In this document: positions 214-63,585 of the stretch, piece after piece
Layout of the letters: the number at the start of each line of letters is the position of its first letter
How positions within the stretch are numbered: position 1 is the stretch's first letter
Assembly (NCBI GenBank): GCA_045636865.1
Contig: JAZTYJ010000022.1
Coordinates: 3,667-67,666 of the forward strand
Direction: 5' to 3'
DNA: 64,000 nt
Source: Eubacteriales bacterium
GTDB lineage: Bacteria > Bacillota > Clostridia > Oscillospirales > JAAYXM01
The notes under the pieces: model-generated
The model's database searches: none
What the model was told of the DNA's origin: nothing
Seen by the model: the letters and a program-made list of their open reading frames with translations, nothing else
Position numbers and translations under genes: made by a program

Positions 214-1401
214 TCAAAATCCCAGAATAATCTGCCATAATGCGAGCAAAAGACCTAAAATGGTGAGCATTGTAACCATGAAGTTATTGCGTTCGGAATA
301 AATAAGAGTCAGATCTGCCTCCAGCAACTCTAAAAGGTACTTGACCTGATCTACAATTGGCGCAATATTCTGACTTATTAAAAGCATGGAGCTCAACTCA
401 CCTATTTCTGAGATTGCTGTTTGTTCTACCTTTTCAAGAACTTCTATTATTTTTTTCCTCAACTCGCGTGTCGTACTGATTCTTCGAAAGTATGAATGAA
501 CTTTTTTATTGCCGTGTTCCGTTTGAAAAGCCAAAACTCCATTGATTAAGGCTTTGAGCATCATAACAAACTCAACAGAAAATAAAATTCCGTGATTTAC
601 TGTTAACGGACACTCACCCATATAAAAGTACGGATTGCAAGAGCCATATATTTTTGTCTGAAATTCTTCTTGTCGTTCAAGATAGTTTTTTTGGCAAGGG
701 CAATCTATCAGATTCAAAAACAGAAATGCTTGTCGCGATGCATAAATACGAATAAACTCACGACTTCCCCACGAATTTGACAAGCGTTCTTTAACTATAT
801 TATCGGGAACAAATTCATACCCTTCATCACCTGACAGAATACCATAAAGAAGCTTTGACTCATCTTTTTCTATGTCATCAATAGTTGTATAATTGTGGAA
901 TTTTGTTATTTCGCACAAAAAGCTTGATTCTATCGAATCAGAAAGACCAAGGGTTTCACTCATTGTTTTTGCAATGTCGGCACACGAGCATTCCCCGTCG
1001 GAAAACTCATATTTTTTATGCACCCCGGATTGCCTTATGGCAATAACCTTGTCTGTATCAATATGGTGGATTGAATAATGAAAAGACAAGGAAATTATGC
1101 TTGATTCTTCAAAATACGACAACAATACACACCAGCCCGAAAATCCGTTTGATTCAAGATTCGGGAAGAAATCATTGATAAAGAATCTGCATACTTTATA
1201 GGTCTGTCCGCCTCCGTGCAAAAAACGCTCCGATGTCTGCATATCCTTTATGTAAGCATTATCAGTATCTGTATTAAGGTCGTAATATACATAATGCGAA
1301 AATTCTTTTTTGACTTTTTCCACAAAACACTCATACTTGTCATATGAATCCGCCTTGTAATAAAAAGCATGAGAAAAATTTGCATTGACAATAAACGACA
1401 T
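214..1401 (-). CDS. hypothetical protein with CorA-like architecture (soluble N-domain, long helical stalk, single C-terminal TM helix)
   Basis: 395-aa ORF with an AAAGGGGAAG RBS upstream. The C-terminus ERNNFMVTMLTILGLLLALWQIILGF resembles CorA TM1, but the protein ends there with no GMN motif and no second TM helix. Confidence 0.6.
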   Translation of the reverse strand: MSFIVNANFSHAFYYKADSYDKYECFVEKVKKEFSHYVYYDLNTDTDNAYIKDMQTSERFLHGGGQTYKVCRFFINDFFPNLESNGFSGWCVLLSYFEESSIISLSFHYSIHHIDTDKVIAIRQSGVHKKYEFSDGECSCADIAKTMSETLGLSDSIESSFLCEITKFHNYTTIDDIEKDESKLLYGILSGDEGYEFVPDNIVKERLSNSWGSREFIRIYASRQAFLFLNLIDCPCQKNYLERQEEFQTKIYGSCNPYFYMGECPLTVNHGILFSVEFVMMLKALINGVLAFQTEHGNKKVHSYFRRISTTRELRKKIIEVLEKVEQTAISEIGELSSMLLISQNIAPIVDQVKYLLELLEADLTLIYSERNNFMVTMLTILGLLLALWQIILGF

Positions 1402-4105: not shown

Positions 4106-4140
4106 AAGAAAAAGAAGCTTCAAAATGAAGCTTCTTTTTC
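4106..4140 (-). terminator. rho-independent terminator ending the hdr/flx/frd-like operon
   Basis: Hairpin gaagcttc-aaaat-gaagcttc flanked by an A-run and a T-run, directly after the transporter stop at 4151. Confidence 0.7.
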
Positions 4141-4150
4141 TTAAAAGGCT

Positions 4151-5521
4151 TTAAGCCATAAGAGTTATTATAAGCTGTGATGCAAGAACAACCAGGACAA
4201 GCGCAATCGGATATGTTGAAGCATAAGCTGCTGCAACATCTTCTGTTTTTGCTGTGTTGATGAGTGTTCCAAGTGCAGGGGTTGATGTCATACCGCCTGT
4301 GATTGAACCGAGTGTGTTGAGAAGGCTTATCTTGAGCACGTACTTTGCAAAGATAAATCCTACAATCATCGGGATAATCTCCATAATTGCACCACCTACG
4401 AAACCGTAGATGACAATCATAGCACCAAGCTCTGACTTTCCTATTTCAGAAACAAGCGAAACACCACCTGATATACCTGCACCGATGAGGAATAGCACAA
4501 GACCAAACTCACGGAAAACCTTTGCAGTAAATTCCGGAACCTTAAGTGAGAACTTGCCGATGCGACCAAAGTGACCGAGAATAAGCGCCATAATGAGCGA
4601 ACCACCTGTTGTTCCGAGCGAGAAGCACGGTCCTGCATAACCCTTTCCTGAAAGCGGAATTGTGATTGAACCAAGAATAAGGCCGAGAACAACTGCGATA
4701 GCAAACGGAGCGATACCGAGCGGTTCAAGTTCAAAAAGACCTTCCTTCTCTTCATGAACAGCATCTGCATCCAATTTGAGAAGTTCTCTTTCCTTGTTCA
4801 TATCTACCTTTAAGAACTTCGGCATAAGCTGAACAAAGAGAACAACACCGATAACACCAAACGGATATGCAATCGCATGTCCGAGTGTAATGATATCTGT
4901 TGGATGGCCAAGAGCTTCTGCAGCTTCAATACCTGCAGAGAATCCCGGAGTTGTTGTAAGTGCACCTGAAAGAACACCAACTGAAAACTCAGGACCGATG
5001 CCCGGTATAAGTGCAAACAATACTGCACAAGCTGAACCACTTAAGATAATAAGCGCACCGATGAGGATGTATGACTTTGCATTCTTCTTGAGGTTTTTGA
5101 AAAATCCCGGACCTGCAATGAATCCAACAGAAGAAACAAAGAGAACAAGACCAACGTTCTGAACAACCTTTGAATACCAGACGTTGAGTGTTGCGCTACC
5201 ATCTTTAATGAAGAAAGCTTTGAGAACAGGAATATTTTCAAGACCGCTGAGGGTTGAAAGATATCCAAAAAGGATAGCTACAAGGAAAACTCCTGCTGTG
5301 CCGAGTGAAACACCCTTGACTGAAATTCCGCCAAGGAGATATCCGAGCGCAGTTACAATGAATATTCCCATAAGGAGCGCTGTAACTGTTGAGAACTTGA
5401 ACACTTTTGCAACGCCCATATCCGGAGCCATTGCATTGAAGATACACCAAGCTGCAATTGCAACTACGATCACGATAGCAATTATAGTCCAAAGTGTTTT
5501 TGAGCTTTTTTTATTTGACAT
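4151..5521 (-). CDS. AAE-family (YidE/YbjL/AspT/SucE-type) transporter, short form
   Basis: 456-aa polytopic membrane protein made of two homologous halves joined by a short charged linker (KVDMNKERELLKLDADAVHEEKEG). Only 15 nt separate it from the upstream flavoprotein gene. Confidence 0.7.
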   Translation of the reverse strand: MSNKKSSKTLWTIIAIVIVVAIAAWCIFNAMAPDMGVAKVFKFSTVTALLMGIFIVTALGYLLGGISVKGVSLGTAGVFLVAILFGYLSTLSGLENIPVLKAFFIKDGSATLNVWYSKVVQNVGLVLFVSSVGFIAGPGFFKNLKKNAKSYILIGALIILSGSACAVLFALIPGIGPEFSVGVLSGALTTTPGFSAGIEAAEALGHPTDIITLGHAIAYPFGVIGVVLFVQLMPKFLKVDMNKERELLKLDADAVHEEKEGLFELEPLGIAPFAIAVVLGLILGSITIPLSGKGYAGPCFSLGTTGGSLIMALILGHFGRIGKFSLKVPEFTAKVFREFGLVLFLIGAGISGGVSLVSEIGKSELGAMIVIYGFVGGAIMEIIPMIVGFIFAKYVLKISLLNTLGSITGGMTSTPALGTLINTAKTEDVAAAYASTYPIALVLVVLASQLIITLMA

Positions 5522-5536
5522 TTTCTCTTCCCTCCA

Positions 5537-7147
5537 TTAGATGTTAGCCTGTTTTGTATAGTTCGGAAGAAGCTTCGGAGAGAGCGTTTCTGTCTCGATA
5601 CCTGCTTTTGCGATTTCTTTTTCGAATTTTGCAATGTGGTCAAGTGTAAGCTTACCAACCTTTACATCCTTCGAAACCTTAGCAGCTGACTTACCTGCAC
5701 TGCGGCCGAAAACAATGATGTCGAGGAGTGAGTTACCCATAAGTCTGTTCTTACCATGGATACCACCGACTGCCTCACCTGCCACGAAGAGATTCTTAAC
5801 GTTAGTTGTCATACCGTCAGGAGTGATATCAAGACCACCGTTCTGATAGTGGAGTGTCGGGTAAATAAGGATCGGCTCCTTGCGGATGTCAATGCCATAT
5901 TTTCCGAACATTCTCATCATAGCCGGAATACGAGCTTCGATTGTGCCCTCGCCTCCAATTTTTTCAATCATCGGAGTATCAAGCCATACTGCAAGGCCGT
6001 TGCCTGTATTTACACCGTTTTCACGTGTGCTGCACTCGCGGATGATTGATGCAGCGGATACGTCGCGTGTTTCAAGCGGATGCATAAATACTTCACCGTT
6101 AACGTTAACGAGCTTTGCACCAAGTGAACGGACTTTTTCTGTAACAAGAGCACCGAAAATCTGCTCGGGATATGCAGCACCTGTCGGGTGATACTGCAAA
6201 GTTTCAGCATAGAGAAGTTTTGCACCTACGCGGTAACCGAGAACAAGGCCGTCTGCAGTTGCGCCGTAGTGGTTTGATGTCGGGAATCCCTGATAGTGCA
6301 TACGTCCTGCACCACCTGTTGCAATGATAACTGTCTTTGCCTTTGCAACGAGAAGATCCTTTGTTTCCATGTTCATAAGAACTGCACCTGCAGCGTTGCC
6401 CTTATCATCGAGGATGAGTTCGATAGCTGCCGAGAAGGCAACAACCGGAATACCGCGGTTTAATACTTCATCGCGGAGAGTTCCCATAATTTCAGCACCT
6501 GAATAGTCCTTTGCGGCGTGCATGCGCTTGCGTGATGTACCGCCGCCGTGAGTTGTGATCATTGTGCCGTTTTCGTCCTTATCAAACCCAACACCGAGGT
6601 TTGAAAGCCACTGAATAGCTTCAGGTGCATCGCAAACAAGCTTTGAGAGAAGGTCGCGCTTTGCGGCAAAGTGTCCGCCACCGAAAGCATCAACAAAGTG
6701 GATAGCCGGTGAGTCGTTTTCCTTGTCAGCTGCCTGAATGCCGCCTTCTGCCATCATTGTGTTTGCATCACCGATGCGGAGCTTTGTAACGATCATTACG
6801 TTTGCGCCTGCCTCGTGAGCTTCGATAGCTGCAGATGAGCCTGCGCCACCGCCACCGATAACAAGAACGTCAACGTCGTAATCCGGGTTGTCAAGATCAA
6901 CGCTTTCTGCATTGATTCTGCTGTGTGCCTGAAGAATGTCTGCAAGCTGTCCCGGAACCTTATCGCCTTTATTCGGACCAATCTTAAGTTCTACAAATTC
7001 GTCTGACTTATAGTCAGGATGATATGCTGCGAGCAATTCTTCTTTCTGCTGTGCAGTCATACGTGCGGGTTCATAAGCAATATTTTTGTCTCGTGCAGCT
7101 TCAACTGCTGCAAGTGATTTCTGTAAACTCTCAGGATACATTAACAT
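5537..7147 (-). CDS. FAD flavoprotein of the succinate dehydrogenase / fumarate reductase / L-aspartate oxidase family, with an N-terminal extension
   Basis: DVLVIGGGGAGSSAAIEAHEAG is a dinucleotide-binding motif, but it begins only at about residue 93. The family-typical GGIHGKNRLMGNSLLD lies near the C-terminus. An alternative start at 7141 has better RBS spacing. Confidence 0.8.
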   Translation of the reverse strand: MLMYPESLQKSLAAVEAARDKNIAYEPARMTAQQKEELLAAYHPDYKSDEFVELKIGPNKGDKVPGQLADILQAHSRINAESVDLDNPDYDVDVLVIGGGGAGSSAAIEAHEAGANVMIVTKLRIGDANTMMAEGGIQAADKENDSPAIHFVDAFGGGHFAAKRDLLSKLVCDAPEAIQWLSNLGVGFDKDENGTMITTHGGGTSRKRMHAAKDYSGAEIMGTLRDEVLNRGIPVVAFSAAIELILDDKGNAAGAVLMNMETKDLLVAKAKTVIIATGGAGRMHYQGFPTSNHYGATADGLVLGYRVGAKLLYAETLQYHPTGAAYPEQIFGALVTEKVRSLGAKLVNVNGEVFMHPLETRDVSAASIIRECSTRENGVNTGNGLAVWLDTPMIEKIGGEGTIEARIPAMMRMFGKYGIDIRKEPILIYPTLHYQNGGLDITPDGMTTNVKNLFVAGEAVGGIHGKNRLMGNSLLDIIVFGRSAGKSAAKVSKDVKVGKLTLDHIAKFEKEIAKAGIETETLSPKLLPNYTKQANI

Positions 7148-7158
7148 TCACCCCTTCT

Positions 7159-7833
7159 CTATTTCTCAATCTCGCGGTTGTTATAAAGCTCTTTGATTTC
7201 ATCAACCGGCTTCTGCATAAGAGCCTCAATAAGCTCGTTGAATGTGCCGTCCTTAATCTCACGGACACGCTCATCAAGATGAGCACAGCCCGGAGCAAGG
7301 TACTTACCGTTGATTCGTCTTGCGAGCATTGCAACCTGCGGATGAGAAATGCCTGCCGGACAACGTGATGAGCAAACACCGCACATTACGCAGTCAAATG
7401 ACTCTTCTGCGCACTTTTCAAAGTCGCCGCGCTGAGCATATGCAATGTACTGCATAACGTTGAGCTCCTGAGTACATGCCTTTGTGCAGGCGTTACAGCC
7501 AACACAAGCATAAATCTCGGGATAGAGCTGCATCATAATTGCTTCGTTTGTCTGAATCTGCTCAATATCATATACCTGCTTTACAAGCGGGAAGAACGGC
7601 AATGTAGCGATGTACATATTGTCTTCTACCTTTGTCTGGCAAGCAAGGCATGCCTTAAGCTCTGAATCGCCCTTGATGCGGTAGATTGTTGCACAAGCAC
7701 CGCAGAAGCCGTTGCGGCATCCGCATCCGCGGACAAGCTGATATCCGGCATATTCCATAGCCGTCATAATTGTGAGGTTTTCCGGAACGGAATACTTCTT
7801 GCCGAAGAGAAAAATATTTACCATATTCTCCAT
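7159..7833 (-). CDS. SdhB/FrdB-like iron-sulfur subunit (2Fe-2S plus two Cys-cluster motifs)
   Basis: Three Cys motifs: CRNGFCGAC...C (plant-ferredoxin type), CVGCNACTKAC and CVMCGVCSSRCP. Confidence 0.8.
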   Translation of the reverse strand: MENMVNIFLFGKKYSVPENLTIMTAMEYAGYQLVRGCGCRNGFCGACATIYRIKGDSELKACLACQTKVEDNMYIATLPFFPLVKQVYDIEQIQTNEAIMMQLYPEIYACVGCNACTKACTQELNVMQYIAYAQRGDFEKCAEESFDCVMCGVCSSRCPAGISHPQVAMLARRINGKYLAPGCAHLDERVREIKDGTFNELIEALMQKPVDEIKELYNNREIEK

Positions 7834-7847
7834 ATTAACACTCTCCT

Positions 7848-8681
7848 TTAATATTCATCCGGAAGCTCGTTCAGCTCGTCAAAGCGGAACACCGGACCAT
7901 CCTTACATACATACTTTGCGCCTACGTTACATCTTCCGCACTTACCGATACCGCACTTCATCTTAAGCTCAAGTGTAGTATAGATCTGTGTCTTCTCAAA
8001 TCCGAGAGAATAGAGACCGTCAAGTGTGAACTTGATCATAATCGGAGGACCGCACAAAACAGCCGTTTTGTCTGTGTCAAGGCCGAGTTCCTTAACATAG
8101 TTCGGAACAAAGCCGACGTGTCCGTCCCAACCCTCCTGCGGATTGTCGATTGTGAGATGAACATCAACACCTGCATCGTTTGACCACTCTTCGATGATTT
8201 CCTGATAGTCAAGCAAGTCGTCCTTACTGCGTGAACCGTAGACGATGTCAATCTTACCGTAACGGTCGCGGTAATGGCGGCAGTAGTTGATAACTGAACG
8301 AAGCGGAGCAAGACCAACACCACCTGCGATGAAGAGGAGGTTCTTTCCTGCAAACACGTCGTCGACCGGGAACGGGTTGCCGTAAGGTCCGCGGACAGTA
8401 ATCTGCTGACCGACCTCTGCGGCATGGAGCCACTCGGTAACGCAACCGCACTTCTTGATTGAGAATTCCATAAATTCCGTATTTGTCGGTGAAGATGTGA
8501 TTGAGAACATCGCCTCGCCTACACCCGGAATTGAAACCATTGCACATTGACCCGGTCTGTGGTCAAAAGGCTTTTTGCCGTCGGGCGTAACAACGCGGAA
8601 TGTCTTTATATCCGGTGTATCGATTCTGACATCCGTAATAACGCCGATTACGGGAATCAAAGCTTCTGAAATATTACTCAT
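7848..8681 (-). CDS. FlxA / AsrB / sulfhydrogenase-gamma-like FAD/NAD(P)-binding oxidoreductase with C-terminal 2Fe-2S
   Basis: RPGQCAMV...FSITSSP is an FAD-binding motif, LLFIAGGVGLAPLRS is an NAD(P) fold, and the C-terminus carries CGIGKCGRCNVG. Confidence 0.8.
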   Translation of the reverse strand: MSNISEALIPVIGVITDVRIDTPDIKTFRVVTPDGKKPFDHRPGQCAMVSIPGVGEAMFSITSSPTNTEFMEFSIKKCGCVTEWLHAAEVGQQITVRGPYGNPFPVDDVFAGKNLLFIAGGVGLAPLRSVINYCRHYRDRYGKIDIVYGSRSKDDLLDYQEIIEEWSNDAGVDVHLTIDNPQEGWDGHVGFVPNYVKELGLDTDKTAVLCGPPIMIKFTLDGLYSLGFEKTQIYTTLELKMKCGIGKCGRCNVGAKYVCKDGPVFRFDELNELPDEY

Positions 8682-9702
8682 TTTCTTTTCCTCCCATCGT
8701 CTTCATTACTTTAACGATATTCATTGATATCGGACACTTTGAAAGACATCTTCCGCATCCAACACAACCGAATACGCCGTTGTTGTTTTCGGGATAGTAT
8801 ACAAGCTTGTGCATAAATCTCTGACGGAAACGTTCGGTCTGTGTAAGTCTCGGGTTACCGTGAGCCATCTTTGTGAAGTCTGAATACATACATGAATCCC
8901 AGCAACGGAAGCGCTGTATTCCTTTACCTGTATTGAACTCTTTTATATCGTAGCACTGGCAGGTCGGACATACGAAAGTACAAGTTCCGCATCCGAGGCA
9001 GGTTTCAGCCATTTCCTTCCACTTTGGTGAATCGAAAAACTCTTTTGTTTTTCCGCCGCCGAAAGCAGAGGTTGAAAGCTTTGCAAGCGGAAGGCGACTA
9101 AGAATCTTCTTTGTAGCTTCCTTCTGCGCGTCAACTACCTTTTCGTCAGCTTCTTCCGTGAATGCTGCGATTTTTTCCATAAAGGCATTTCCCTTTTCGG
9201 TATTTGCCTTGAAATATACACCGTCATCGCATCTCCACGCACTTACATCTCCCGCCGGTTCTGTTGCATCAATTCCGAATGCTGAACAGAAGCATGTTTC
9301 TGACGGCTTTCCGCAAGCTACCGAAACAACTGTTCCGTGCTCACGTCTTTCCTTATAGAAAGTGTCAACCGGCTCTGAAAGGAAAACTGTATCGAGGATG
9401 TCAAAGCTCTTTACATCGCACGGACGAACACCGAAGATGACGTAATCTTCTTTTTCATCGCGGATATCGATAATTTCAATATTCTTTCCTTCGCGCTTGA
9501 ATTCTACGAAGTTTTCCATCTGTGGGAAGAAAAAGTCTTTTGCGCTGCGTTCAGTATTGAGAGCTTCGCTCCACTTCTTTCCTTCTTCCCATTTTTCAAA
9601 ACGTGCCTTACCGTCGCTACCGTCTACCGGAAGGTATACAGGCATTTTTTCTGACACGGCAGAGATAAGAGCGTCGATTTTTTCAACAGAACATTTACGC
9701 AT
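8674..9702 (-). CDS. FlxB / AsrA / sulfhydrogenase-beta-like 4Fe-4S protein
   Basis: Motifs CGTCTFVCPTCQCYD and CVGCGRCLSKCP. Overlaps the downstream gene by 8 nt. Confidence 0.7.
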   Translation of the reverse strand: MRKCSVEKIDALISAVSEKMPVYLPVDGSDGKARFEKWEEGKKWSEALNTERSAKDFFFPQMENFVEFKREGKNIEIIDIRDEKEDYVIFGVRPCDVKSFDILDTVFLSEPVDTFYKERREHGTVVSVACGKPSETCFCSAFGIDATEPAGDVSAWRCDDGVYFKANTEKGNAFMEKIAAFTEEADEKVVDAQKEATKKILSRLPLAKLSTSAFGGGKTKEFFDSPKWKEMAETCLGCGTCTFVCPTCQCYDIKEFNTGKGIQRFRCWDSCMYSDFTKMAHGNPRLTQTERFRQRFMHKLVYYPENNNGVFGCVGCGRCLSKCPISMNIVKVMKTMGGKENE

Positions 9703-10694
9703 TACTTATCCCCCCTATCAAAAACTTCAGACGGTTCAAGGTCGCCGGTTGTATAATTTACAAGCGGTGCGCGTGATCCTTCTTCTGCGCCTGCCTGATA
9801 TTCACCGTAAAACTCATTGATATCCTTTATAAACTTGCGGTTGAGCAAATGAAGCGGAATGTTCTGCGGACATACTCTTGAGCATTCGCCGCAGTCTGTG
9901 CAACGACCGGCTACATGGAATGCGCGGATGATGTGGAACATCTTTTCTTCAAAGCTGTTTGCCGCCGCCTTGTTCTCAACACCTGAATCCGGGTTTCCGA
10001 AAACACACTTTTCACATGTGCAAGCCGGGCATACATCGCGGCAAGCGTTGCAACGGATGCAACGTGAAAGCTCGTTCTGCCAGAAAGCAAATCTTTCATC
10101 CGGAGTCATCTTTTCAAGACGCTCAACCTCGTCAAAACGGTTTGAATCGAGGACTTCGCCGTCTTCACCCAAAAGCTCATCATATGCAACGTGCTTCTTG
10201 CTCTTGCAATTTATGCAACGCTCTGCAAGCACATCTGCAAACGAAACGGAAACCGGAGCATCTTCGTAAATTGTTGTAACCTTGAGAGTTTCACCGTCGG
10301 TCTCAACGCCCGAGATACCCTCGCCTGTTTTTTCTTTGATTTTTGAAACATCAACCATACCTTCACACGGGATGCCTACCGCATAGACCTTTTCACGGTC
10401 AAAACGGTGCTCTGTAAGGAGCTGATTGAAGCTGTATGTGTCGCAGGGTTTTAAGAAAACGAGAATCTTTTCTTCTGCCTTTATTGTCTTTGAAACGAGA
10501 TATTTTGAGAAGTTTGCTCCGCAAAAATCGTTCCAGACAAAGTTGTTTTTAAGATCTTCTTCGCTTGAGAAAACCGAAGGAGTAACGTCATAGTCAAACT
10601 CACCGGCTCTCCAGCCGAGAACAGAGGAAACTGTTCCGTTATTAAGGAGAGATACTGCCTTTTCAAGCAACATATCGCGTGTTATCTTTTGCAT
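9702..10694 (-). CDS. FlxC-like 4Fe-4S dicluster protein
   Basis: Motifs CIRCNACRDVCPACTCEKC and CTDCGECSRVCPQNI. Overlaps the next gene by 1 nt. Confidence 0.7.
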   Translation of the reverse strand: MQKITRDMLLEKAVSLLNNGTVSSVLGWRAGEFDYDVTPSVFSSEEDLKNNFVWNDFCGANFSKYLVSKTIKAEEKILVFLKPCDTYSFNQLLTEHRFDREKVYAVGIPCEGMVDVSKIKEKTGEGISGVETDGETLKVTTIYEDAPVSVSFADVLAERCINCKSKKHVAYDELLGEDGEVLDSNRFDEVERLEKMTPDERFAFWQNELSRCIRCNACRDVCPACTCEKCVFGNPDSGVENKAAANSFEEKMFHIIRAFHVAGRCTDCGECSRVCPQNIPLHLLNRKFIKDINEFYGEYQAGAEEGSRAPLVNYTTGDLEPSEVFDRGDK

Positions 10695-11116
10695 CGCAGA
10701 TCCTCCAATCTCTTGTTCTCACCAAGTGAAATAACTGTTTCTACAAATTCGTTCATTGTTGCAGAGAACTTTGCACCCTCCGCAGCTGATACCCACTCAA
10801 CACGAGTTCTTTCCTTCTCAATTCCGAGATAATCAAGCATTGAGAACAAAAGTGCCATTCTGCGGCGTGTGTAGTAGTTACCTGAAGTGTAGTGGCAATC
10901 TCCCGGATGGCATCCGCAGATGATTACGCCGTCTGCTCCGCGCTGGAACGCTCTTAAAATAAACATCGGGTTTACTCGGCAAGAGCACGGAACGCGGATA
11001 ATTTTAACTTCTGCAGGGTAATTGAGACGGTTATTACCCGCAAGGTCAGCACCTGCATATGAACACCAGTTACAGCAGAATGCGACAATTAAAGGCTTAT
11101 GTTCATTTACTTGCAT
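10682..11116 (-). CDS. mvhD: MvhD / FlxD-like protein (methyl-viologen-reducing hydrogenase delta subunit family)
   Basis: FCCNWCSYAGADLAG...RVPCSCRV...GADGVIICGCHPGDCHY matches the MvhD family. The likely start is ATG at 11116 (RBS GGAGG), which overlaps the hdrA stop by 10 nt. The longer track ORF is an upstream extension. Confidence 0.85.
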   Translation of the reverse strand: MQVNEHKPLIVAFCCNWCSYAGADLAGNNRLNYPAEVKIIRVPCSCRVNPMFILRAFQRGADGVIICGCHPGDCHYTSGNYYTRRRMALLFSMLDYLGIEKERTRVEWVSAAEGAKFSATMNEFVETVISLGENKRLEDLRCKR

Positions 11117-13101
11117 ATTGCGTCTACCTCCGCCATAATCTGATTTGTTGAGAATCCACGAAGATCCATAGCTCCTGACGGACATGCAACCGTACATGCA
11201 CCGCACCCCTGGCAAACTGCCGGGTTAACCTTTGCGATACGTCTCATACGAGTCGTGCGGTCAGGCATTCTGAATTCTTTGTCTTCATAAGAAATTGCGC
11301 CATACGGACATACGCGTTCACAGGATGAGCATCCGTTACACATAAGCTCGTTTGAGTTTGCAACACAGGGGTTACCCGTGAGCTTATCCTTTGCAAGAAG
11401 TCCGATAACCTTTGCGGCTGCGGCACTTGCCTGGGATACTGTTTCCGGAATGTCCTTCGGGCCCTGACATGCGCCTGAAAGGAACACGCCGGCTGTCGGG
11501 CTCTCTACCGGACGGAGCTTCGGATGAGCTTCTGTGAAGAAGTCGTTTGTATCCATACTTGCCGTGAGCATTGTTGCAAGCGGACGAGCTGACTTGTCAG
11601 GCTCGATAGCCGCCGCAAGAACAACGAGGTCTGCATCAATGTTAATCTGCTTGTTGTTGAGGAGGTCTGATGCCTGAACCTTGAGCTTTTTGCCCTCGGG
11701 AGAGACCTTACCGACCATTCCCTTTATATACTTGACGCCAAATTCTTCAACCGCACGGCGGTAGAACTCGTCAAAGTTCTTACCCGGTGTACGAACGTCA
11801 ATATAGAATACATAAACTTCTGTATCCGGATATTTGTCGCGAACGAGCATTGCGTGCTTTGCAGTATACATACAGCAAATCTTTGAGCAATATTCCTTAC
11901 CCTTTTCGGCACACGCATCACAACGGGAGCCTACGCACTGAACAAACACAACCGTGTGCGGATGCTCGCGGTCTGACGGACGGAGAAGCTTTCCTGCTGT
12001 CGGACCTGCCGCATTTGTAAGACGCTCAAACTCAAGGGAGGTGATAACGTCTTTTGACTGGTTGTATGCAAATTCGTCGAATTTATCAAGGCTTATCGGA
12101 TTATAACCCGTTGCCGCAACGATTGCACCGTAACGCTCCTCAATGATTTCATCCTGCTGCTTATAGTCGATGGCACCTGCGGCACAAACCTTTGCACAAA
12201 CACCGCACTTGCCGTTTTTAAGCATATTACATGAGTTCGGATCGATTGTTGCAACCTTCGGAACAGCCTGAGCAAACGGAATGTAGATAGCTGCGCGGGT
12301 GTCCATATTGAGGTTGAACTCGTTCGGAACCTTTTTCATCGGGCACTTTTCAAGACATGCTCCGCAACCTGTGCAGACATCTTCTTTAACGTAACGTGCC
12401 TTTTTCTTGATCTTTACATCGAAGTTTCCGACAAAACCGTTTACTTCTTCTACTTCACTATAAGAGAAGATGCGGATTTTTTCATTCTGAGCAACGTCAA
12501 CCATCTTCGGGGTGAGGATACATGCCGCACAGTCAAGAGTCGGGAATGTTTTGTCGATCTGTGCCATCTTTCCGCCGATGGTCGGATTCTTTTCAACGAT
12601 ATCAACCGGGAATCCTGCCTCTGCGATATCAAGAGCAGTCTGGATACCCGCGATACCGCCACCGATAACGAGCGCGCGCTTCGTAACCGGAGTTTCGCCC
12701 GGAGTAAGCGGTGCGTTGAGGTTGACCTTTGCGATAGCCGCACGGCCAAGGATGATTGCCTTTTCTGTACCCGTTGCGATATCCTTGTGGACCCATGAGC
12801 ACTGCTCACGGATGTTTGCGATTTCAACCATATACGGGTTGATGCCTGCAGCAGCTGCAGTTTTTCTGAATGTTGCTTCATGCATACGCGGTGAGCATGA
12901 GCAGATAACAAGACCTGTGAGGTTGTGCTCGCGGACTGCGTCGATTATCATATTCTGACCTGCCTGTGAGCACATGTACTGATAGTTGGTGGATAAGACT
13001 ACTCCCTGCTCGCTTGCAAGAGCGTCAGAAACTGCCTGCACGTCAACCGTGCCTGCGATGTTGCTTCCGCACCAACATACAAAAACGCCGATTCTCTGCA
13101 T
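11107..13101 (-). CDS. hdrA: heterodisulfide reductase subunit A (HdrA)
   Basis: VIGGGIAGIQTALDIAEAG is the FAD motif. CVGSRC...YCSKICCMY is the HdrA signature. There are also four ferredoxin CxxCxxCxxxCP motifs. Confidence 0.9.
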   Translation of the reverse strand: MQRIGVFVCWCGSNIAGTVDVQAVSDALASEQGVVLSTNYQYMCSQAGQNMIIDAVREHNLTGLVICSCSPRMHEATFRKTAAAAGINPYMVEIANIREQCSWVHKDIATGTEKAIILGRAAIAKVNLNAPLTPGETPVTKRALVIGGGIAGIQTALDIAEAGFPVDIVEKNPTIGGKMAQIDKTFPTLDCAACILTPKMVDVAQNEKIRIFSYSEVEEVNGFVGNFDVKIKKKARYVKEDVCTGCGACLEKCPMKKVPNEFNLNMDTRAAIYIPFAQAVPKVATIDPNSCNMLKNGKCGVCAKVCAAGAIDYKQQDEIIEERYGAIVAATGYNPISLDKFDEFAYNQSKDVITSLEFERLTNAAGPTAGKLLRPSDREHPHTVVFVQCVGSRCDACAEKGKEYCSKICCMYTAKHAMLVRDKYPDTEVYVFYIDVRTPGKNFDEFYRRAVEEFGVKYIKGMVGKVSPEGKKLKVQASDLLNNKQINIDADLVVLAAAIEPDKSARPLATMLTASMDTNDFFTEAHPKLRPVESPTAGVFLSGACQGPKDIPETVSQASAAAAKVIGLLAKDKLTGNPCVANSNELMCNGCSSCERVCPYGAISYEDKEFRMPDRTTRMRRIAKVNPAVCQGCGACTVACPSGAMDLRGFSTNQIMAEVDAICK

Positions 13102-13113
13102 CTTATCTCCCTC

Positions 13114-13506
13114 CTACTTCGTATATTTTCTGAATGCGCTGACGAGCGCCTGCTGCGGCATATCATCGTCGAGCTTATCTGGAATCATATTTGCCTTCAA
13201 GTGGTTATTTCCTTGCTTGCGGATTTCCATTAGACGAACAGCCTCGATAACCTTTGCAGGCTGAACACTTCTCGGACATCTGTCAAGGCAAGCAAAGCAT
13301 GTGAGACACTTATAAAGTGAATCTGACTTGAGAAGCGGCTCAATGTCGCCGTTTTCAAGCATGCTCACAAACTGATGCGGATGGTATTCCATCTCATCGT
13401 ATGCAGGACACGTTGCCGAGCACTTTCCGCAACGCATGCACTTTGACGGATTAACTCCGCTTATGCGCATGATTTCGTCTTTCAATGCATCATATTTTTT
13501 AGACAT
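13114..13506 (-). CDS. hdrC: heterodisulfide reductase subunit C-like (two 4Fe-4S motifs)
   Basis: Motifs CMRCGKCSATCPAY and CLTCFACLDRCPRS. 130 aa, and overlaps hdrB by 8 nt. Confidence 0.8.
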   Translation of the reverse strand: MSKKYDALKDEIMRISGVNPSKCMRCGKCSATCPAYDEMEYHPHQFVSMLENGDIEPLLKSDSLYKCLTCFACLDRCPRSVQPAKVIEAVRLMEIRKQGNNHLKANMIPDKLDDDMPQQALVSAFRKYTK

Positions 13507-14284
13507 TTGTATCCTCCTTTACTCCGAGAGCTTCTGCAAGGAGCTCCGTAAAATAGATTACGGGAATCTCGGAACCGTTCTTAACGAGGTTATACTTACA
13601 AAGCGGACAAGCCGTAACCATCATTTCCGCACCGCAGTTTTTTGCGTTGTCGCTTACTGCATTGCTTCTCTTCTTTGCGAGTGTTTCGCTCTCGAGAGCA
13701 ATGTAGCCGCCGCAACATTCGTTGCGGTTTGCATAGTAAACAGGCTCTGCACCGATAGCGCGGATGAAGTCTTCCATAATCTTCGGATTTTCAGGATCGT
13801 CCATCTGCATAACTCCACTCGGTCTGAGGAGGAGGCATCCGTAATACGGAGCTATTTTCTTGCCTGTGAGCGGATTTACAACCTTCTCACGGATTTTGTC
13901 AAATCCTACGAGGTCGCGAAGCATTTCGAGATAGTGATAAATTTCGCAGTCACCCTCATATGCATCTTCGTCCATATAGCGATTTACCTTTGAAGCAAAA
14001 GTTTCATCACTCATCGCATGGTTAGTCTGCTTGATTACGTTGTGGCAAGCAGAACAGACCGTAACAAGAGCCTGACCTTTGCTCTTTGCAGCTTTAAGAG
14101 CGCGGACCGATGAAAGCTTTGTTGCAATCTCATCATTTGCAGTTGTGAACACACCGCCGCAACATTGCCATTCTTCGATCTCCTCAAGCGTAATGCCGAG
14201 AGCTTCTGCAGCACGTCTTGCATATGCATCAAGATCTTTCGCTTTGTTTTTTAATGTGCATCCGGGAAAATAACTTAGTTTCAT
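13499..14284 (-). CDS. hdrB: heterodisulfide reductase subunit B-like (two CCG domains)
   Basis: Two CCG motifs (WQCCGGVF and NECCGGY) with flanking Cys residues. The start is taken at MKLSYFPGC, where ATG at 14284 follows a GGGGG RBS. Confidence 0.85.
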   Translation of the reverse strand: MKLSYFPGCTLKNKAKDLDAYARRAAEALGITLEEIEEWQCCGGVFTTANDEIATKLSSVRALKAAKSKGQALVTVCSACHNVIKQTNHAMSDETFASKVNRYMDEDAYEGDCEIYHYLEMLRDLVGFDKIREKVVNPLTGKKIAPYYGCLLLRPSGVMQMDDPENPKIMEDFIRAIGAEPVYYANRNECCGGYIALESETLAKKRSNAVSDNAKNCGAEMMVTACPLCKYNLVKNGSEIPVIYFTELLAEALGVKEDTNV

Positions 14285-14414
14285 AATTTTGCCCCCTGTC
14301 TTTATCTTCTTTAAAAGCACCGTTAATCTGAAAAAGCTTTATAATCCTTTACAAAACAGTTTTACAGACAACACTAAATCCGCACTCGTCATTTATCTGA
14401 CAGCACGGAAAAAC

Positions 14415-14449
14415 ACGGCTCTTATGTCATTTCGAGCCGTTTGTTTTTT
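14415..14449 (-). promoter_or_regulatory. terminator-like hairpin plus U-tract at the 5' end of the predicted hdr leader
   Basis: acggctc-N12-gagccgt (14415-14440) is followed on the minus strand by GTTTTTCC and on the plus strand by TTGTTTTTTG. It lies just downstream of the predicted transcription start. Confidence 0.35.
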
Positions 14450-14451
14450 GA

Positions 14452-14469
14452 TTGTTATTATTATAACAA
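14452..14469. promoter_or_regulatory. Rex-type operator candidate
   Basis: TTGTTAT-TATT-ATAACAA is a perfect 7-4-7 palindrome (9-4-9 if the flanks at 14450-14471 are included). It differs from the clostridial Rex consensus TTGTTAAnnnnTTAACAA by one symmetric position per half-site. Confidence 0.45.
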
Positions 14470-14488
14470 TCTTTACGACATTTTTCAA
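14460..14488 (-). promoter_or_regulatory. sigma-A type promoter of the hdr/flx operon
   Basis: On the minus strand: TTGAAA (14488-14483), a 17-nt spacer, then TATAAT (14465-14460). The -10 box lies inside the palindrome. Confidence 0.6.
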
Positions 14489-14818: not shown

Positions 14819-15760
14819 ATGGATACTTTTCTTTTTTCGGTTAATGCCGTTATTCCCTTGTTTTTGATGACACTGCTCGGCTGGTGTCTCACGAAGCTTA
14901 AATTCTGGAACGATGAGTTTTTAAAAATCGGAAACTCGCTGTCTTTTACGGTTCTCATCCCGGCGATGCTTTTCTATAACATCTACACCTCTGACTTCAG
15001 GGCGGTATTTGACATTAAACTTCTTCTGCTCATTATCGCAACTGTTGTCGTTGTGTGTCTTGCGGGGCTTTTTGTTGTTCATGCCTGCGTTTCCGAGCAC
15101 GCAAGGCGCGGAGTTATTGTTCAGGCACTTTTTCGAGGTAACACAGCCTTGCTCGGAATTCCACTGTGCGAATCATTAATGGGTTCTGAAGGCGCACAGA
15201 TAGCTTCTATTTTCTTAGCATTCATAATTCCGACCTTCAACATTCTCGCAACAATTCTCCTCAGCATTTACAGTAATGACCCTGTTGAATCTCCGTTTTC
15301 TGTTGTAAAGAAAATATTTAAAAACCCGCTCATAATCGGATGCATTTTGGGTATTGCATTTTCACTTTTGAAAATTCCGCTTCCCGAGATAGTTCTTAAG
15401 CCGATTCACGATTTAAAAGTAATCGCAACTCCGTTTGCGCTTTTGATTCTCGGCGGAGATTTCAGGTTTTCAAGTTTCATCTCAAACCTGCGCTATGTTC
15501 TTTTAACCGGATTTTCGCGCCTTATTCTCATTCCGGCTTTCGCCGTCGCGGTTGCGGCCTTTTTCGGTTACCGCGGAATCCACATCGCGCTCGTCCTCTC
15601 CACTTTTGCAACCCCAGTTGCGGTTTCAAGCACCGCCATGACTTATAAAATGAACGGTGATTATGACCTTGCGTGTCAGCTTGTTGTTTTCACCACCATC
15701 TTCTCCGCTTTTTCCCTTACACTGTTTACATTCGTACTTAAAACAATCGGTCTTATCTGA
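14819..15760 (+). CDS. AEC (auxin efflux carrier / malate-permease-type) family transporter
   Basis: 313-aa protein with roughly 10 TM helices and an N-terminus typical of the family ([19 protein letters not shown]). Confidence 0.8.
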
Positions 15761-17212: not shown

Positions 17213-18277
17213 TTACTTTTTCAGTTTTGATTTCATTACGCCGATTTTTCTCACAATCGCTCTGTAATTTGACTGAACACTCTCTATAATCTTTGCAGTT
17301 TTTGGCATAAAGAGCATATCAAGCTTTCCGACGAAGTCGCATCTCTCCCCTGCAAAACCTGCCTTAAAGCGAATGAGACCATCAAGCTGCGTTTTCTCCA
17401 TATCACCTGTTATGCCGCGAAAATCATAAATGTTGCAGTTGTTTTCGATTGTCCACTTTATCATTTCCCATTGCATCATATAGTTCGGCATACGGTTTCT
17501 TTCACGGTTGCTGCTCGCCCCGTAGAGATACCACACCTTATCACCGAAAAGAATCGCAACTGCGCCCGAAATAACCTGACCTTCATACTCCATAAGATAA
17601 AGGCGGAGATTGTCCGGTGCGAGAATATCGTACATATCCTCGAAATACTTAAGGCTTCTTGCGATAAAACCATCGCGGACTGCAGTTTCTTTCATTATCT
17701 CGACAAAAGCAGGCAAATCTTCTTTTGTTCCGATTCGGGAAGTTACTCCCTTCTTGACCGAAAGACGGACATTGTAGCGCGTTTTTGAGTGGAATGCCGC
17801 AAAAACCTCTTCTTCATTACGTCCGTTTATCGGGAGGCGGAAAACGTATCTCGCCTGAAGATATTCCGGACGGTGCTTCGTGTTGTTTACACAGAACCCC
17901 GCGGAACAAAGTTCCGAAAGATACGGATCATCATCCAAAATATCCGGATCGATTGAGAGCTCATATGCATTATACTTCTCTGCAAGCTTTCTGCTCTCTG
18001 CAAGAAGCTCTAAAAGTGTCTGCGTGTCGCCGTCTGTTGTGACGGGACCGCGCGGACAGTACATATGAGTATATTTCGTTTTTGCGACCTTGCTCGTCAT
18101 AATGAGCATACTGCCGAGAACTTTGCCATCCTCATCGCACGACATAAAAGCATCGCACTTCCACGGCTTTTTAAAAGCCGCCCATTTGAGCGATTTAACA
18201 AAATGCCCTCTCGGGTGTGATTCTACAAACGCTTCGTATTTCTTTGCGCTCGCTTCATCCGTAACATACTGTATCAT
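17213..18277 (-). CDS. FemAB-family peptidoglycan interpeptide-bridge aminoacyltransferase (copy 2)
   Basis: About 350 aa with FemX-like conserved blocks (YCPRGPV, FHSKTRYNVRL, YLYGASSN, MQWEMIKW, FKAGFAGE). Confidence 0.85.
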   Translation of the reverse strand: MIQYVTDEASAKKYEAFVESHPRGHFVKSLKWAAFKKPWKCDAFMSCDEDGKVLGSMLIMTSKVAKTKYTHMYCPRGPVTTDGDTQTLLELLAESRKLAEKYNAYELSIDPDILDDDPYLSELCSAGFCVNNTKHRPEYLQARYVFRLPINGRNEEEVFAAFHSKTRYNVRLSVKKGVTSRIGTKEDLPAFVEIMKETAVRDGFIARSLKYFEDMYDILAPDNLRLYLMEYEGQVISGAVAILFGDKVWYLYGASSNRERNRMPNYMMQWEMIKWTIENNCNIYDFRGITGDMEKTQLDGLIRFKAGFAGERCDFVGKLDMLFMPKTAKIIESVQSNYRAIVRKIGVMKSKLKK

Positions 18278-18280
18278 AAT

Positions 18281-19330
18281 CTATTCCCTTCCCAACATCT
18301 TTCGTGCAATTTTAAAAAGCTTTTGCAAAACTTTAACTTTTCTGTTTGCAGATTTATCGTAAATTACATCAATTCTTCCGACAAAAGAAACAAGCTCACC
18401 GCCAAAACGCTTTTTGAACCTTACAAGTCCCTCAATCGGAGTGAGCTTATCCCCCTCACCTGCGATGCCGCGCATATCATAAAGGAAATAACCGTTATCT
18501 CTCGACCAGCGCATCATCTCCCATTGCATAAGGAAGTTCGGCATAGTCTCTTTCGCTTCGTCGTTACTGCCCGCATACATATGCCAGCTCTTGCCTGCAC
18601 ACGCAAGAAGAACGGATCCTGCAATCGGCTTTCCTTCATACTCAACAATAAACAGCTTGAACATATCTTCGCCGAATGCATCGAGCATATCAGCAAAATA
18701 TTCTTCATTTCTCGCCGTAAAGCCATCCCGCCTTGCAGTTGATTCTAACAGTCCGCAAAATGTTGGGATGTCTTCGCGCGTACCAAGTCGACAAACCGCG
18801 CCGCTTTTGAGAGCTGTTCGAACATTGTAACGCGCTTTTGAGTGAAACATCGCCATGAGCTCGTCGTCCGACTTATTAACATCGATTCTGTAAACAGCAA
18901 GTGGCTGAAGGATTGCATTGTCGGTTGAATTCTCCCCTATTTCCGCGCCCTTTCTGTCAAAGAAATCAAGCCACGGCTTGTTGTTCTCCAAAGTAATATC
19001 AGGATCAAGTGTCAGCTTATATGCGCCGATTTCTTTTGCAATTACTTCAGCTTCTGCCAAAAGCTCAGAAAGTGCTTTTGTATTGTCTCTTGAACACACG
19101 GGACCTCGCGGTGCGTAAAGAAAAATCTTGTCTGTTCGTCTTACCTTCTGAACAAACATCAGCATAACGCCGATTACTTCTTCATCGTCATCCTCGCAGA
19201 TGAGAGCAAAGCTCTTCTGCGCATTTTTAAAATCCTTCCACTCAAGAGACTGCAAAAAATGGCTGTTTTCACTCTTCTTGAAGAAGTCGTAATACTTATT
19301 TATATCATTTTCGCAAACTCGTCTGACCAT
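18281..19330 (-). CDS. FemAB-family peptidoglycan interpeptide-bridge aminoacyltransferase (copy 1)
   Basis: Paralogue of the adjacent gene (YAPRGPV, FHSKARYNVRT, HMYAGSND, MQWEMMRW, FKKRFGGE). A 3-nt gap separates the two. Confidence 0.85.
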   Translation of the reverse strand: MVRRVCENDINKYYDFFKKSENSHFLQSLEWKDFKNAQKSFALICEDDDEEVIGVMLMFVQKVRRTDKIFLYAPRGPVCSRDNTKALSELLAEAEVIAKEIGAYKLTLDPDITLENNKPWLDFFDRKGAEIGENSTDNAILQPLAVYRIDVNKSDDELMAMFHSKARYNVRTALKSGAVCRLGTREDIPTFCGLLESTARRDGFTARNEEYFADMLDAFGEDMFKLFIVEYEGKPIAGSVLLACAGKSWHMYAGSNDEAKETMPNFLMQWEMMRWSRDNGYFLYDMRGIAGEGDKLTPIEGLVRFKKRFGGELVSFVGRIDVIYDKSANRKVKVLQKLFKIARKMLGRE

Positions 19331-19438: not shown

Positions 19439-20230
19439 TTACTTGCGGTTTTCGAGCATATCAACAAATTCGCAGATTCCATCAACGATTTCGTTGCAAA
19501 TTTTCTCTCCAAGCTCCTTTGTAGCTTTTTCAGGAAATCCCATTACACCAACTTCAATTTCATCGCGCTGACCGACTGTTTCAACGACAAATCTGTTGTC
19601 AATCGGCTTTGTTCTCTTTTCAAACCAGTCCTGATCAGATCTCATCATCTTTGAGAAATACTCTTCATCCATAACGATTTCTTCGCGGACTTCATCGGGC
19701 GCCCAATGCATCATAAGTGCAGTCTCCATCATACCTGCGTGGAAGTCGTGCTCCGGCTCCATAGCAAAGCCCGAGAGCCATGTCGGAGAAAGATTCCAAG
19801 CCTCGACGAGAGAAAGAGTGATCTTCTCTGACATCGCCTTGTCGCGGCGAAGGAGCATCTGAAGACTATTGCGAAGAGCGTTTATATTGTCTGTTCCTGC
19901 GTGACCAAGGAAGACGACGATATTCTTAAAGCCCATTTTCACAAATTCAGATACAATTTCACCGATGTAGAGACCGAACGTATTCGGGCTTACGTTGACC
20001 GTGCCGAGAAGCTCGCCACCGGAGAAGCAGTAATTTACAGACGGAGCAACAACTGCATTGAGTTTGTCAGCTGCGATTTTCAGCGGCTTGTTTGCATTGT
20101 GAATATCTGTTGCGAGTGTGAGGTGATATCCGTGCTGCTCTACAACACCGACCGGGATAATAACGGTTTTCGTCTTTGCAAGAGCGTCCTTCATATCTTT
20201 TACTGTCATTTTTTCCATATAGAAAGCCAT
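19439..20230 (-). CDS. creatininase-family amidohydrolase (intact paralogue)
   Basis: Family motifs: IIPVGVVEQHGYHLTLATD, VFLGHAG and HAGMMETA. Confidence 0.85.
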   Translation of the reverse strand: MAFYMEKMTVKDMKDALAKTKTVIIPVGVVEQHGYHLTLATDIHNANKPLKIAADKLNAVVAPSVNYCFSGGELLGTVNVSPNTFGLYIGEIVSEFVKMGFKNIVVFLGHAGTDNINALRNSLQMLLRRDKAMSEKITLSLVEAWNLSPTWLSGFAMEPEHDFHAGMMETALMMHWAPDEVREEIVMDEEYFSKMMRSDQDWFEKRTKPIDNRFVVETVGQRDEIEVGVMGFPEKATKELGEKICNEIVDGICEFVDMLENRK

Positions 20231-38161: not shown

Positions 38162-38674
38162 TTATGAAAATCTGAATGTTGCCGCAATTTCTGCGAGTTC
38201 TTTTCTTATCGCTTCATTTGTATTTTTCGGATACTCCCAAGAAACGATATAGGTGTTTCCGTCTTTTTCATACACCGAAAACCAAAGCGAATCACCGTCA
38301 GGCTCAATTCCGAGAATCCGGTTTCCCGTCAAGTCTTCTATGATATAATCATCATTTTCGCGGAGAAAGATACCTCTTGCAACTATTTCGTCAGTATTTT
38401 TATAAGTTGTTACCGAAATTTCGACGTCATCGTACTTTTTGCTGTTCCACGTCTCTTCGAGGTTTCCGTCATCAAGGTCGCGCTCATACCGATATCCGTC
38501 CGGGATTGAGATAGTATACCCCTCACCCTGATAAACATTATCTTTCGTCTTTTCTCCACCGACCGTTGCAAACGTCTTATCGTTCTGCACCTCGGGCAGA
38601 TAAAGCGTCTTCTCACGCGCACCGCAGCCTGCAAGAAGAAACACGGATAACAGAAGCAAAATTAACTTTTTCAT
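38162..38674 (-). CDS. lipoprotein of unknown function
   Basis: The signal peptide carries a lipobox: MKKLILLLLSVFLLAGCG. Confidence 0.7.
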   Translation of the reverse strand: MKKLILLLLSVFLLAGCGAREKTLYLPEVQNDKTFATVGGEKTKDNVYQGEGYTISIPDGYRYERDLDDGNLEETWNSKKYDDVEISVTTYKNTDEIVARGIFLRENDDYIIEDLTGNRILGIEPDGDSLWFSVYEKDGNTYIVSWEYPKNTNEAIRKELAEIAATFRFS

Positions 38675-38892: not shown

Positions 38893-38979
38893 TATGTCAT
38901 CCCCCTGATACAAAAAAACTTGAATAACAAAAATAAACATTATATAATAAATTCAAAGAAAACAAGCGAGGTGTTTTTT

Positions 38980-43958: not shown

Positions 43959-43967
43959 ATCATTCAC

Positions 43968-45131: not shown

Positions 45132-45201
45132 ACAAATCACCCAATCTTTCTGTTATAAAACGCGATAAAATCACCTGTGCCGGTGATTTTACAGTCGCAT
45201 A

Positions 45202-46062: not shown

Positions 46063-46078
46063 TTCCATATCCTCCGGA

Positions 46079-47293: not shown

Positions 47294-47308
47294 TTTCCAT
47301 ATCCTCCG

Positions 47309-53501: not shown

Positions 53502-53519
53502 TTTTTGGAGGTTATTCTA

Positions 53520-63378: not shown

Positions 63379-63585
63379 AATGTACTCCTGACTCCGCAAC
63401 TTGCGGTTTCGCTTTCGCGGCAAGCGATCGCCGAATTTCAACCTTTTTGAGGCTGAGTGGTTTTCTGATTATATGATAACACATTTTACACAAAATCTCA
63501 ATGGGTATTTTAGGAAAATTTGTGTATTTTTAAAAATTTTTTGTGAGTATGTTAACAGTTTATTTACTGTTAATTTTTTCTTTAT

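Follow-up and report, generated by a model that had tools for sequence, protein, structure and literature searches.

Organisation of the operon

A 64-kb stretch of DNA (64,000 nucleotides, hereafter the window) from an Eubacteriales bacterium (assembly GCA_045636865.1, contig JAZTYJ010000022.1, forward-strand positions 3,667–67,666) was analysed around a cluster of redox genes, which is predicted to encode a soluble fumarate reductase supplied with electrons by an Flx-Hdr module. As annotated here, ten minus-strand genes in the order hdrB-hdrC-hdrA-mvhD-flxC-flxB-flxA-frdB-frdA-AAE lay between a sigma-70-type promoter (14460–14488, minus strand) and an intrinsic terminator (4106–4142, minus strand). 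The promoter consisted of TTGAAA, a 17-nucleotide (nt) spacer and TATAAT with an extended TG, matching 11 of 12 consensus positions, and the terminator of a 17-bp stem, a 3-nt loop and a T-run.

A first-pass annotation, made from the letters of the DNA alone, had counted eleven genes. Genes called independently on a metagenome contig of 99% identity also numbered ten, and an eleventh gene was rejected, because junctions of 1–15 nt and the leader left no space for a further open reading frame (ORF). The start of hdrB was placed at 14284, an ATG preceded by a ribosome-binding site (GGGGG), and the resulting protein of 261 amino acids (aa) matched those of relatives. The close packing described in the first-pass annotation was found as it had been read: there were overlaps of 8 nt (hdrB/hdrC), 10 nt (hdrA/mvhD), 13 nt (mvhD/flxC), 1 nt (flxC/flxB) and 8 nt (flxB/flxA), followed by gaps of 14, 11 and 15 nt down to the AAE gene; the hdrC-hdrA gap was 12 nt. 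The promoter was as strong as had been claimed and the terminator hairpin was the sole strong one, while sites inside the cluster were weak and the total number of sites was no higher than in shuffled sequence. Closely packed between a single strong promoter and a single strong terminator, the ten genes read as one operon.

The Hdr and Flx subunits

Identities that had been read from motifs (HdrB, HdrC, HdrA, MvhD, a pair of iron-sulphur (Fe-S) proteins and a FAD/NAD(P)/2Fe-2S protein) were borne out by Pfam and NCBIfam profile searches. HdrB (13499–14284, minus strand, as are all genes of the operon) contained two CCG domains, which are sites for non-cubane 4Fe-4S clusters, with both motifs complete, and matched methanogen HdrB structures (E 2e-36). 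HdrC (13114–13506, 130 aa) had two 4Fe-4S motifs (CoB_CoM_SS_C, E 8e-18). HdrA (11107–13101, 664 aa), with FAD and multiple Fe-S sites, is presumed to be the bifurcating flavoprotein and scored 777 bits against the HdrA2 model. It aligned over its full length (E 2e-202) to the bifurcating HdrA of known structure from Methanothermococcus thermolithotrophicus (5ODC_A), and the cluster-binding Cys motifs and both ferredoxin-like domains of that type were retained.

MvhD, or FlxD (10682–11116, 144 aa), was an MvhD-type 2Fe-2S electron-transfer subunit (FlpD, E 6e-55) and matched the C-terminal MvhD part of the HdrA2 model. The FlxC-like protein (9702–10694, 330 aa) was an Fe-S protein with two 4Fe-4S motifs by Pfam and NCBIfam, and the FlxB-like one (8674–9702, 342 aa) an AsrA/HydB-type Fe-S protein (Fer4_22; ShyB/HydB/AsrA models, E 1e-40 to 1e-48). 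The FlxA-like protein (7848–8681, 277 aa) was an AsrB/HydG-like NAD(P)H-binding flavoprotein with FAD_binding_6, NAD_binding_1 and a C-terminal 2Fe-2S domain (DHODB_Fe-S_bind). The set is that of the FlxABCD-HdrABC type: on the Hdr side, an HdrA with FAD and multiple 4Fe-4S sites, an HdrB with two CCG domains and an HdrC with two 4Fe-4S motifs; on the Flx side, FlxA, FlxB, FlxC and an MvhD-like FlxD in one predicted transcription unit with hdr.

The genes frdB and frdA occupied the acceptor position of this cluster. As had been noted, no dsrC was seen in the window: a six-frame search of the 64 kb for the DsrC/TusE C-terminal motif was negative, and Pfam scans of ORFs from 150 aa upwards revealed no DsrC.

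FrdA and FrdB

FrdA (5537–7147, 536 aa) was a TfrA-related FAD_binding_2 flavoprotein (PF00890, E 9e-65) with a predicted fumarate-reducing site. Its best NCBIfam model was TfrA (333 bits), ahead of the generic Sdh/Frd model (272) and NadB (259); the TfrA match spanned model positions 6–426 of 546, ending ahead of the C-terminal domain. Distant members of the subfamily (38–54% identity) also scored best against TfrA, and a bona fide archaeal TfrA (P0199, 765 bits against the TfrA model) was 39% identical by BLASTP and 38–43% by other tools. Among 1.84 billion representative proteins searched, the relatives formed a distinct subfamily in which an N-terminal extension of ~90 residues was conserved.

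The four catalytic residues of fumarate reductases were conserved in the alignment (H320, R340, H433 and R468). At the position of the histidine that binds FAD covalently in membrane-bound Sdh/Frd, FrdA had Asn129, which was invariant in 33 close homologues (alignment A1). Non-covalent FAD is a hallmark of enzymes running in the fumarate-reducing direction, so this residue agrees better with a reductase than with a succinate dehydrogenase. An AlphaFold model from the 33 close homologues reached a predicted local distance difference test (pLDDT) of only 64 and was discarded; the one used, built on a diverse alignment, had a pLDDT of 95 and a predicted template modelling score (pTM) of 0.93. Its best PDB match in Foldseek was E. 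coli FrdA (1kf6_A, E 3e-37, TM 0.71). FrdA therefore has the fold and the catalytic His/Arg/His/Arg set of the Sdh/Frd superfamily, lacking its covalent-FAD histidine. The NadB score of 259 bits was below the curated nadB cutoff of 452.75, and the alignment position of Glu121, the NadB-specific residue, was Gly in FrdA with His one residue before it. The best model, the catalytic residues and the fold all agree with the first-pass reading of a fumarate-reductase-like flavoprotein.

FrdB (7159–7833, 224 aa) had one SdhB-type 2Fe-2S motif and two CxxCxxCxxxC (4Fe-4S) motifs. Pfam and motif scans found no CCG domain in it; the CCG domains sit on HdrB, encoded by a separate gene, and the fusion of CCG to the Fe-S subunit that marks TfrB is absent here. 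An archaeal TfrB aligned to FrdB over residues 54–205 and to HdrB over residues 260–477, and the TfrB model was tiled jointly by HdrB, HdrC and FrdB, indicating that the methanogen protein in effect fuses FrdB-type and HdrB-type modules. One natural protein (P0122) joined FrdB and the flavoprotein in a single chain. The TfrB fusion supports, rather than proves, a contact of HdrB/HdrC with FrdB in the present system.

Gene neighbourhood in relatives

At least 597 genome stretches encoding a relative were found in a one-genome-per-species collection. Neighbourhoods were counted in the best 80 of these together with L001 (loci L001–L081). The best 80 loci were 80–89% identical and all from Clostridia, mostly uncultured metagenome-assembled genomes (MAGs), with isolate names suggesting animal or human guts; one of them was the cultured Yeguia hominis NSJ-40, and a literature search on its succinate production gave nothing useful.

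The complete hdrBCA-mvhD-flxCBA-frdB block was present in 53 of 54 loci for which enough upstream DNA was available. The class II fumarase gene fumC lay directly upstream of hdrB in 49/52, and a malate dehydrogenase gene (mdh) was also present in 44/52. The AAE gene directly followed frdA in 50 of 74. The typical operon, mdh-fumC-hdr-flx-frdBA-AAE, would be a complete branch from oxaloacetate to exported succinate, and this layout is the strongest evidence for fumarate as the predicted substrate. The window belonged to a minority without mdh and fumC, as did L003 and L046.

Other loci kept the pair in other settings. In L087 (811–9771), four kor genes for a 2-oxoacid:ferredoxin oxidoreductase were followed by hdrA-mvhD-hdrC-hdrB-frdB-frdA, the flavoprotein being 54% identical, indicating that the Hdr-Frd link survives a different gene order. 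This layout fits a reductive tricarboxylic acid (TCA) setting, where the oxidoreductase could draw on ferredoxin supplied by bifurcation. The co-localisation of hdr-flx and frd, for which a survey of relatives had been suggested in the first-pass annotation, is thus conserved in the nearly invariant blocks above, and that of hdr and frd, reordered, in L087.

On two marine gammaproteobacterial metagenome contigs (L083 and L084, 9366–12891), there were homologues of FrdB (212 aa) and of FrdA (545 aa), the latter 46–48% identical and with the N-terminal extension kept. Here frdBA was followed, via 4-nt overlaps, by a NuoF-like gene (Complex1_51K, SLBB and NADH_4Fe-4S domains) with no Hdr or Flx genes nearby, which predicts a three-subunit soluble NADH:fumarate reductase. 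The chromosome of Prochlorococcus sp. MIT 1201 (L085, 6001–8357) encoded an FrdA-like protein, 42–44% identical and with the N-terminal extension, and an FrdB-like protein, standing alone. A soluble fumarate-reductase-like pair was not expected in a cyanobacterium. In a Congzhengia sp. MAG (L072, 8079–11605, 81% identity), frdBA lay behind a CitMHS-family anion transporter gene without Hdr/Flx neighbours, and L088 held a lone fused FrdBA-type protein with no visible partner. These loci suggest that FrdBA behaves as a portable acceptor module, and such portability speaks for direct Fe-S wiring rather than a thiol mediator.

Transporters

The AAE-family protein (4151–5521, 456 aa) contained the two Asp-Al_Ex membrane domains that characterise the family of AspT, SucE and YidE (PF06826 in two stretches, E 7e-59) and scored 142 bits against TIGR01625 (cutoff 72); no TrkA_C domain was detected in it. 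The first-pass annotation had made it part of the system. It is contiguous with the operon in the window, but the counts above make it a frequent, non-universal member. Family membership and position suggest that it is a C4-dicarboxylate carrier and would export succinate.

A divergent AEC transporter (Mem_trans) gene, cited earlier as supporting evidence, was indeed present at 14819–15760, but it lent no support. Its 66 bits against a cutoff of 246 amounted to a generic AEC match, it headed a co-directional group with nfo (endonuclease IV) and yfcE (YfcE phosphodiesterase), and it adjoined the cluster in none of the 81 related loci. It was rejected as a member of the system.

Proposed reaction and alternatives

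The operon likely encodes a soluble multi-subunit NAD(P)H:fumarate oxidoreductase on an Flx-Hdr scaffold, bifurcating to ferredoxin, together with a dicarboxylate transporter. NAD(P)H would be oxidised at FlxA (FAD and 2Fe-2S), the predicted point of electron entry, and electrons would pass via the Fe-S proteins FlxB and FlxC and via MvhD to the FAD of HdrA. There the pair would be split, one electron going uphill through the ferredoxin-like domains of HdrA to ferredoxin and the other downhill through HdrC and HdrB into the 2Fe-2S/4Fe-4S chain of FrdB. The chain would end at FrdA, whose non-covalent FAD would reduce fumarate to succinate, and succinate would leave through the AAE carrier. The overall reaction would be 2 NADH + fumarate + oxidised ferredoxin → 2 NAD+ + succinate + reduced ferredoxin. 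Four elements of this scheme are inferences: the direction of electron flow, the bifurcation, direct Fe-S wiring that needs no thiol mediator, and the identity of the exported solute as succinate.

The standard potential of NADH is -320 mV and that of ferredoxin ~-420 to -500 mV. For fumarate/succinate it is +33 mV (PMC5861303). With these potentials the coupled reaction would be exergonic by ~33–49 kJ/mol. The earlier proposal that Hdr/Flx feeds the fumarate-reductase-like pair, and not DsrC, was well supported by the near-invariant association of the two gene sets, by the fumC and mdh neighbours, and by a TfrA-like FrdA with its catalytic residues in place.

Several points weigh against this reading. 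FrdA fell below every curated NCBIfam cutoff, including that of TfrA (NF004900, 718 bits), and both Pfam and the alignment showed the C-terminal domain (Succ_DH_flav_C, PF02910) to be missing; in score and in domain content it differs from a TfrAB flavoprotein, and it belongs to a distinct subfamily with a predicted substrate. HdrB has both CCG motifs intact and may carry out a thiol/disulfide step. Neither tblastn nor Pfam scans of the ORFs from 150 aa upwards found fumC or mdh in the 64-kb window. The occurrence of FrdBA with other partners or none means that fumarate reduction by the pair needs no bifurcation in itself. No biochemical characterisation of any member was found in the literature searched. 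The operon of Pseudoclostridium thermosuccinogenes (see below), with the same order hdrB-hdrC-hdrA-mvhD-flxCBA-frdB-frdA and near-identical sizes, was compared by order and sizes alone.

Among the alternatives, a non-bifurcating NADH:fumarate reductase, in which Hdr/Flx merely wires NAD(P)H to FrdBA and ferredoxin is not reduced, is the least improbable, although we consider it unlikely. Simple NADH-driven operation is made plausible by the gammaproteobacterial FrdBA, which has no Hdr and whose genes are translationally coupled to that of one NuoF-like NADH-binding subunit, and electron transfer from NADH to fumarate is strongly exergonic by itself. A seven-subunit input module would, however, be extravagant for such plain wiring; the HdrA of the window has the full domain layout of the bifurcating methanogen enzyme, with both ferredoxin-like domains and the cluster motifs; and the L087 cluster adjoins a ferredoxin-dependent 2-oxoacid oxidoreductase.

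Rather less probable still is a thiol-mediated, two-step route in the manner of Desulfovibrio or methanogens, in which Flx-HdrABC would reduce a protein or low-molecular-weight disulfide and the thiol would then reduce fumarate as in Tfr. Tfr chemistry depends on a thiol, the TfrB model is tiled by HdrB, HdrC and FrdB, and the CCG motifs of HdrB are complete. But FrdB lacks CCG and the operon has a single HdrB, which leaves the fumarate reductase without a thiol-oxidising site of its own; the window has no DsrC-like gene; and FrdBA occurs with non-Hdr partners elsewhere. That the flavoprotein acts on another substrate (L-aspartate, as in NadB, or another unsaturated acid), with the AAE protein as an amino-acid exchanger, is very improbable. 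In its favour are the good score of NadB models (259 bits), the membership of the aspartate:alanine exchanger in the AAE family and a flavoprotein score under all curated cutoffs. Against it, the NadB Glu121 position, as mapped by alignment, is Gly/His, TfrA is the best model throughout the subfamily, NadB has no Fe-S partner subunit, the conserved neighbours are fumC and mdh rather than nadA/nadC, and the succinate producer P. thermosuccinogenes expresses the same type of operon highly (PMC7282089).

Within the preferred reading, a bifurcating NAD(P)H:fumarate oxidoreductase, a more specific version combines two proposals: that HdrC and HdrB serve as a pure, thiol-free relay into the fumarate reductase, and that FrdBA, with its N-terminal extension, is portable across Flx-Hdr, NuoF-like or no donor. 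We give this combination slightly less than an even chance. Such a relay would provide an energy-conserving "fumarate respiration" for hundreds of quinone-free, mostly uncultured species of gut Clostridia, with reduced ferredoxin passing to Rnf or hydrogenase. If the predicted reaction takes place, it would also explain succinate formation and energy conservation in Clostridia that lack both quinones and a membrane-bound fumarate reductase. Fumarate would then join the few high-potential acceptors known to drive flavin-based electron bifurcation. Succinate is known to affect the host and cross-feeding, and the system could be a major route to it, given the at least 597 stretches and the predominance of gut-linked MAGs among the best 80 loci, all of them from Clostridia.

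The leader and other genes of the window

Between the promoter and hdrB lay a 5′ leader of ~175 nt (14285–14459, minus strand) with several predicted hairpins, which folded unusually well (minimum free energy -45.4 kcal/mol, z = -3.7). Its first hairpin (~14410–14447), followed by a U-run, was terminator- or attenuator-like in appearance. The leader matched no Rfam family at gathering or E ≤ 1 thresholds; a riboswitch or other known RNA was rejected on this ground.

The remainder of the 64-kb window was ordinary chromosomal housekeeping. An arginine biosynthesis cluster (42975–48232, minus strand; an argF-like ornithine transcarbamylase (OTCase) gene, argD, argB, argJ and argC) and an ECF transporter module with truA (52659–55961) confirmed the chromosomal context. 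Two tandem FemAB-family paralogues (354 and 349 aa) were encoded at 17213–19330 (minus strand) and presumably act as transferases on peptidoglycan cross-bridges, and two separate creatininase-family (PF02633) genes lay within 20 kb of each other (19439–20230, minus strand, and 38920–39666, plus strand). Four ORFs had no Pfam match: 214–1401 (minus strand, 395 aa), 41183–42919 (plus strand, 578 aa), 38162–38674 (minus strand, 170 aa) and 62971–63441 (minus strand, 156 aa). The two largest, of 395 and 578 aa, had no NCBIfam match either.

Comparison with known systems

The arrangement had been proposed as new in the first-pass annotation, but it was published as a prediction in 2019–2020 for P. 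thermosuccinogenes, and Flx-Hdr with tfrAB had been described in tubeworm symbionts. The "succinate operon" of P. thermosuccinogenes comprises a fumarate hydratase gene, seven Flx-Hdr genes, a two-gene fumarate reductase and a gene for a small hypothetical protein (Koendjbiharie et al. 2020, PMC7282089). Its gene sizes, from the supplement of that paper, are 1366 nt for fumC, 784 nt (261 aa) at the hdrB position, 325 nt (~108 aa) at the hdrC position, 5348 nt for the next five genes, 676 nt (224 aa) at the frdB position and 1603 nt (534 aa) at the frdA position. Its genes were expressed at a high level and regulated together (log2 fold changes of -1.4 to -2.0; PMC7282089). The function proposed there, a ferredoxin-reducing fumarate reductase linked to Flx-Hdr, is the one predicted here (PMC7282089). 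The two differ at their ends: fumC precedes hdrB in P. thermosuccinogenes and is missing from the window, and the terminal gene encodes a 456-aa AAE transporter in the window as against ~83 aa.

In tubeworm symbionts, flxABCD-hdrABC is interspersed with tfrAB and korABCD, and direct electron delivery to fumarate reductase was proposed (Rubin-Blum et al., PMC6315080; Mitchell et al., PMC11636981). As in the window, Flx-Hdr of these symbionts and Thioflavicoccus is clustered with a soluble fumarate reductase, and the kor-hdr-frdBA layout of L087 is comparable. These bacteria are autotrophic Gammaproteobacteria with a reductive TCA cycle, whereas the window comes from a fermentative gut Clostridium whose relatives add mdh-fumC and an exporter.

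For FlxABCD-HdrABC of Desulfovibrio vulgaris, as reported through PMC7282089 and PMC6315080, the proposed acceptor is the DsrC disulfide (Ramos et al. 2015). According to these accounts it has the same seven protein types (FlxA with FAD/NAD/2Fe-2S, FlxB, FlxC, FlxD, HdrA, HdrB and HdrC); relative to it, the window has a mirrored gene order, no dsrC, and frdBA in the same predicted transcript.

Methanogen TfrAB shares with the window its best-scoring flavoprotein family, non-covalent FAD, one 2Fe-2S and two 4Fe-4S motifs, and an HdrB-type CCG protein in the electron path. TfrB fuses the Fe-S and CCG parts that are separate in the window as frdB and hdrB, and FrdA differs from TfrA in its N-terminal extension, its missing C-terminal domain and its score (333 against the 718-bit cutoff). 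The donor is CoM-SH plus CoB-SH in TfrAB and, by prediction, NADH via Flx-HdrA in the window. The methanogen HdrABC-MvhAGD and HdrA2B2C2 complexes (5ODC, 8RVU and 7BKB) are like the window in their full-length HdrA with Cys motifs kept and in homologous HdrB and HdrC. Their donors are hydrogenase, formate dehydrogenase or F420H2, in place of the Flx (NADH) module, and their acceptor is CoM-S-S-CoB, where that of the window would be fumarate via FrdBA.

The window is thus a further member of an already published, predicted kind of system and not a new module. Its value lies in one more example and in a pointer to the cultured carriers Y. hominis NSJ-40 and P. thermosuccinogenes. New here are the at least 597 matching stretches and the finding of FrdBA paired with a NuoF-like protein, or alone, in other phyla.

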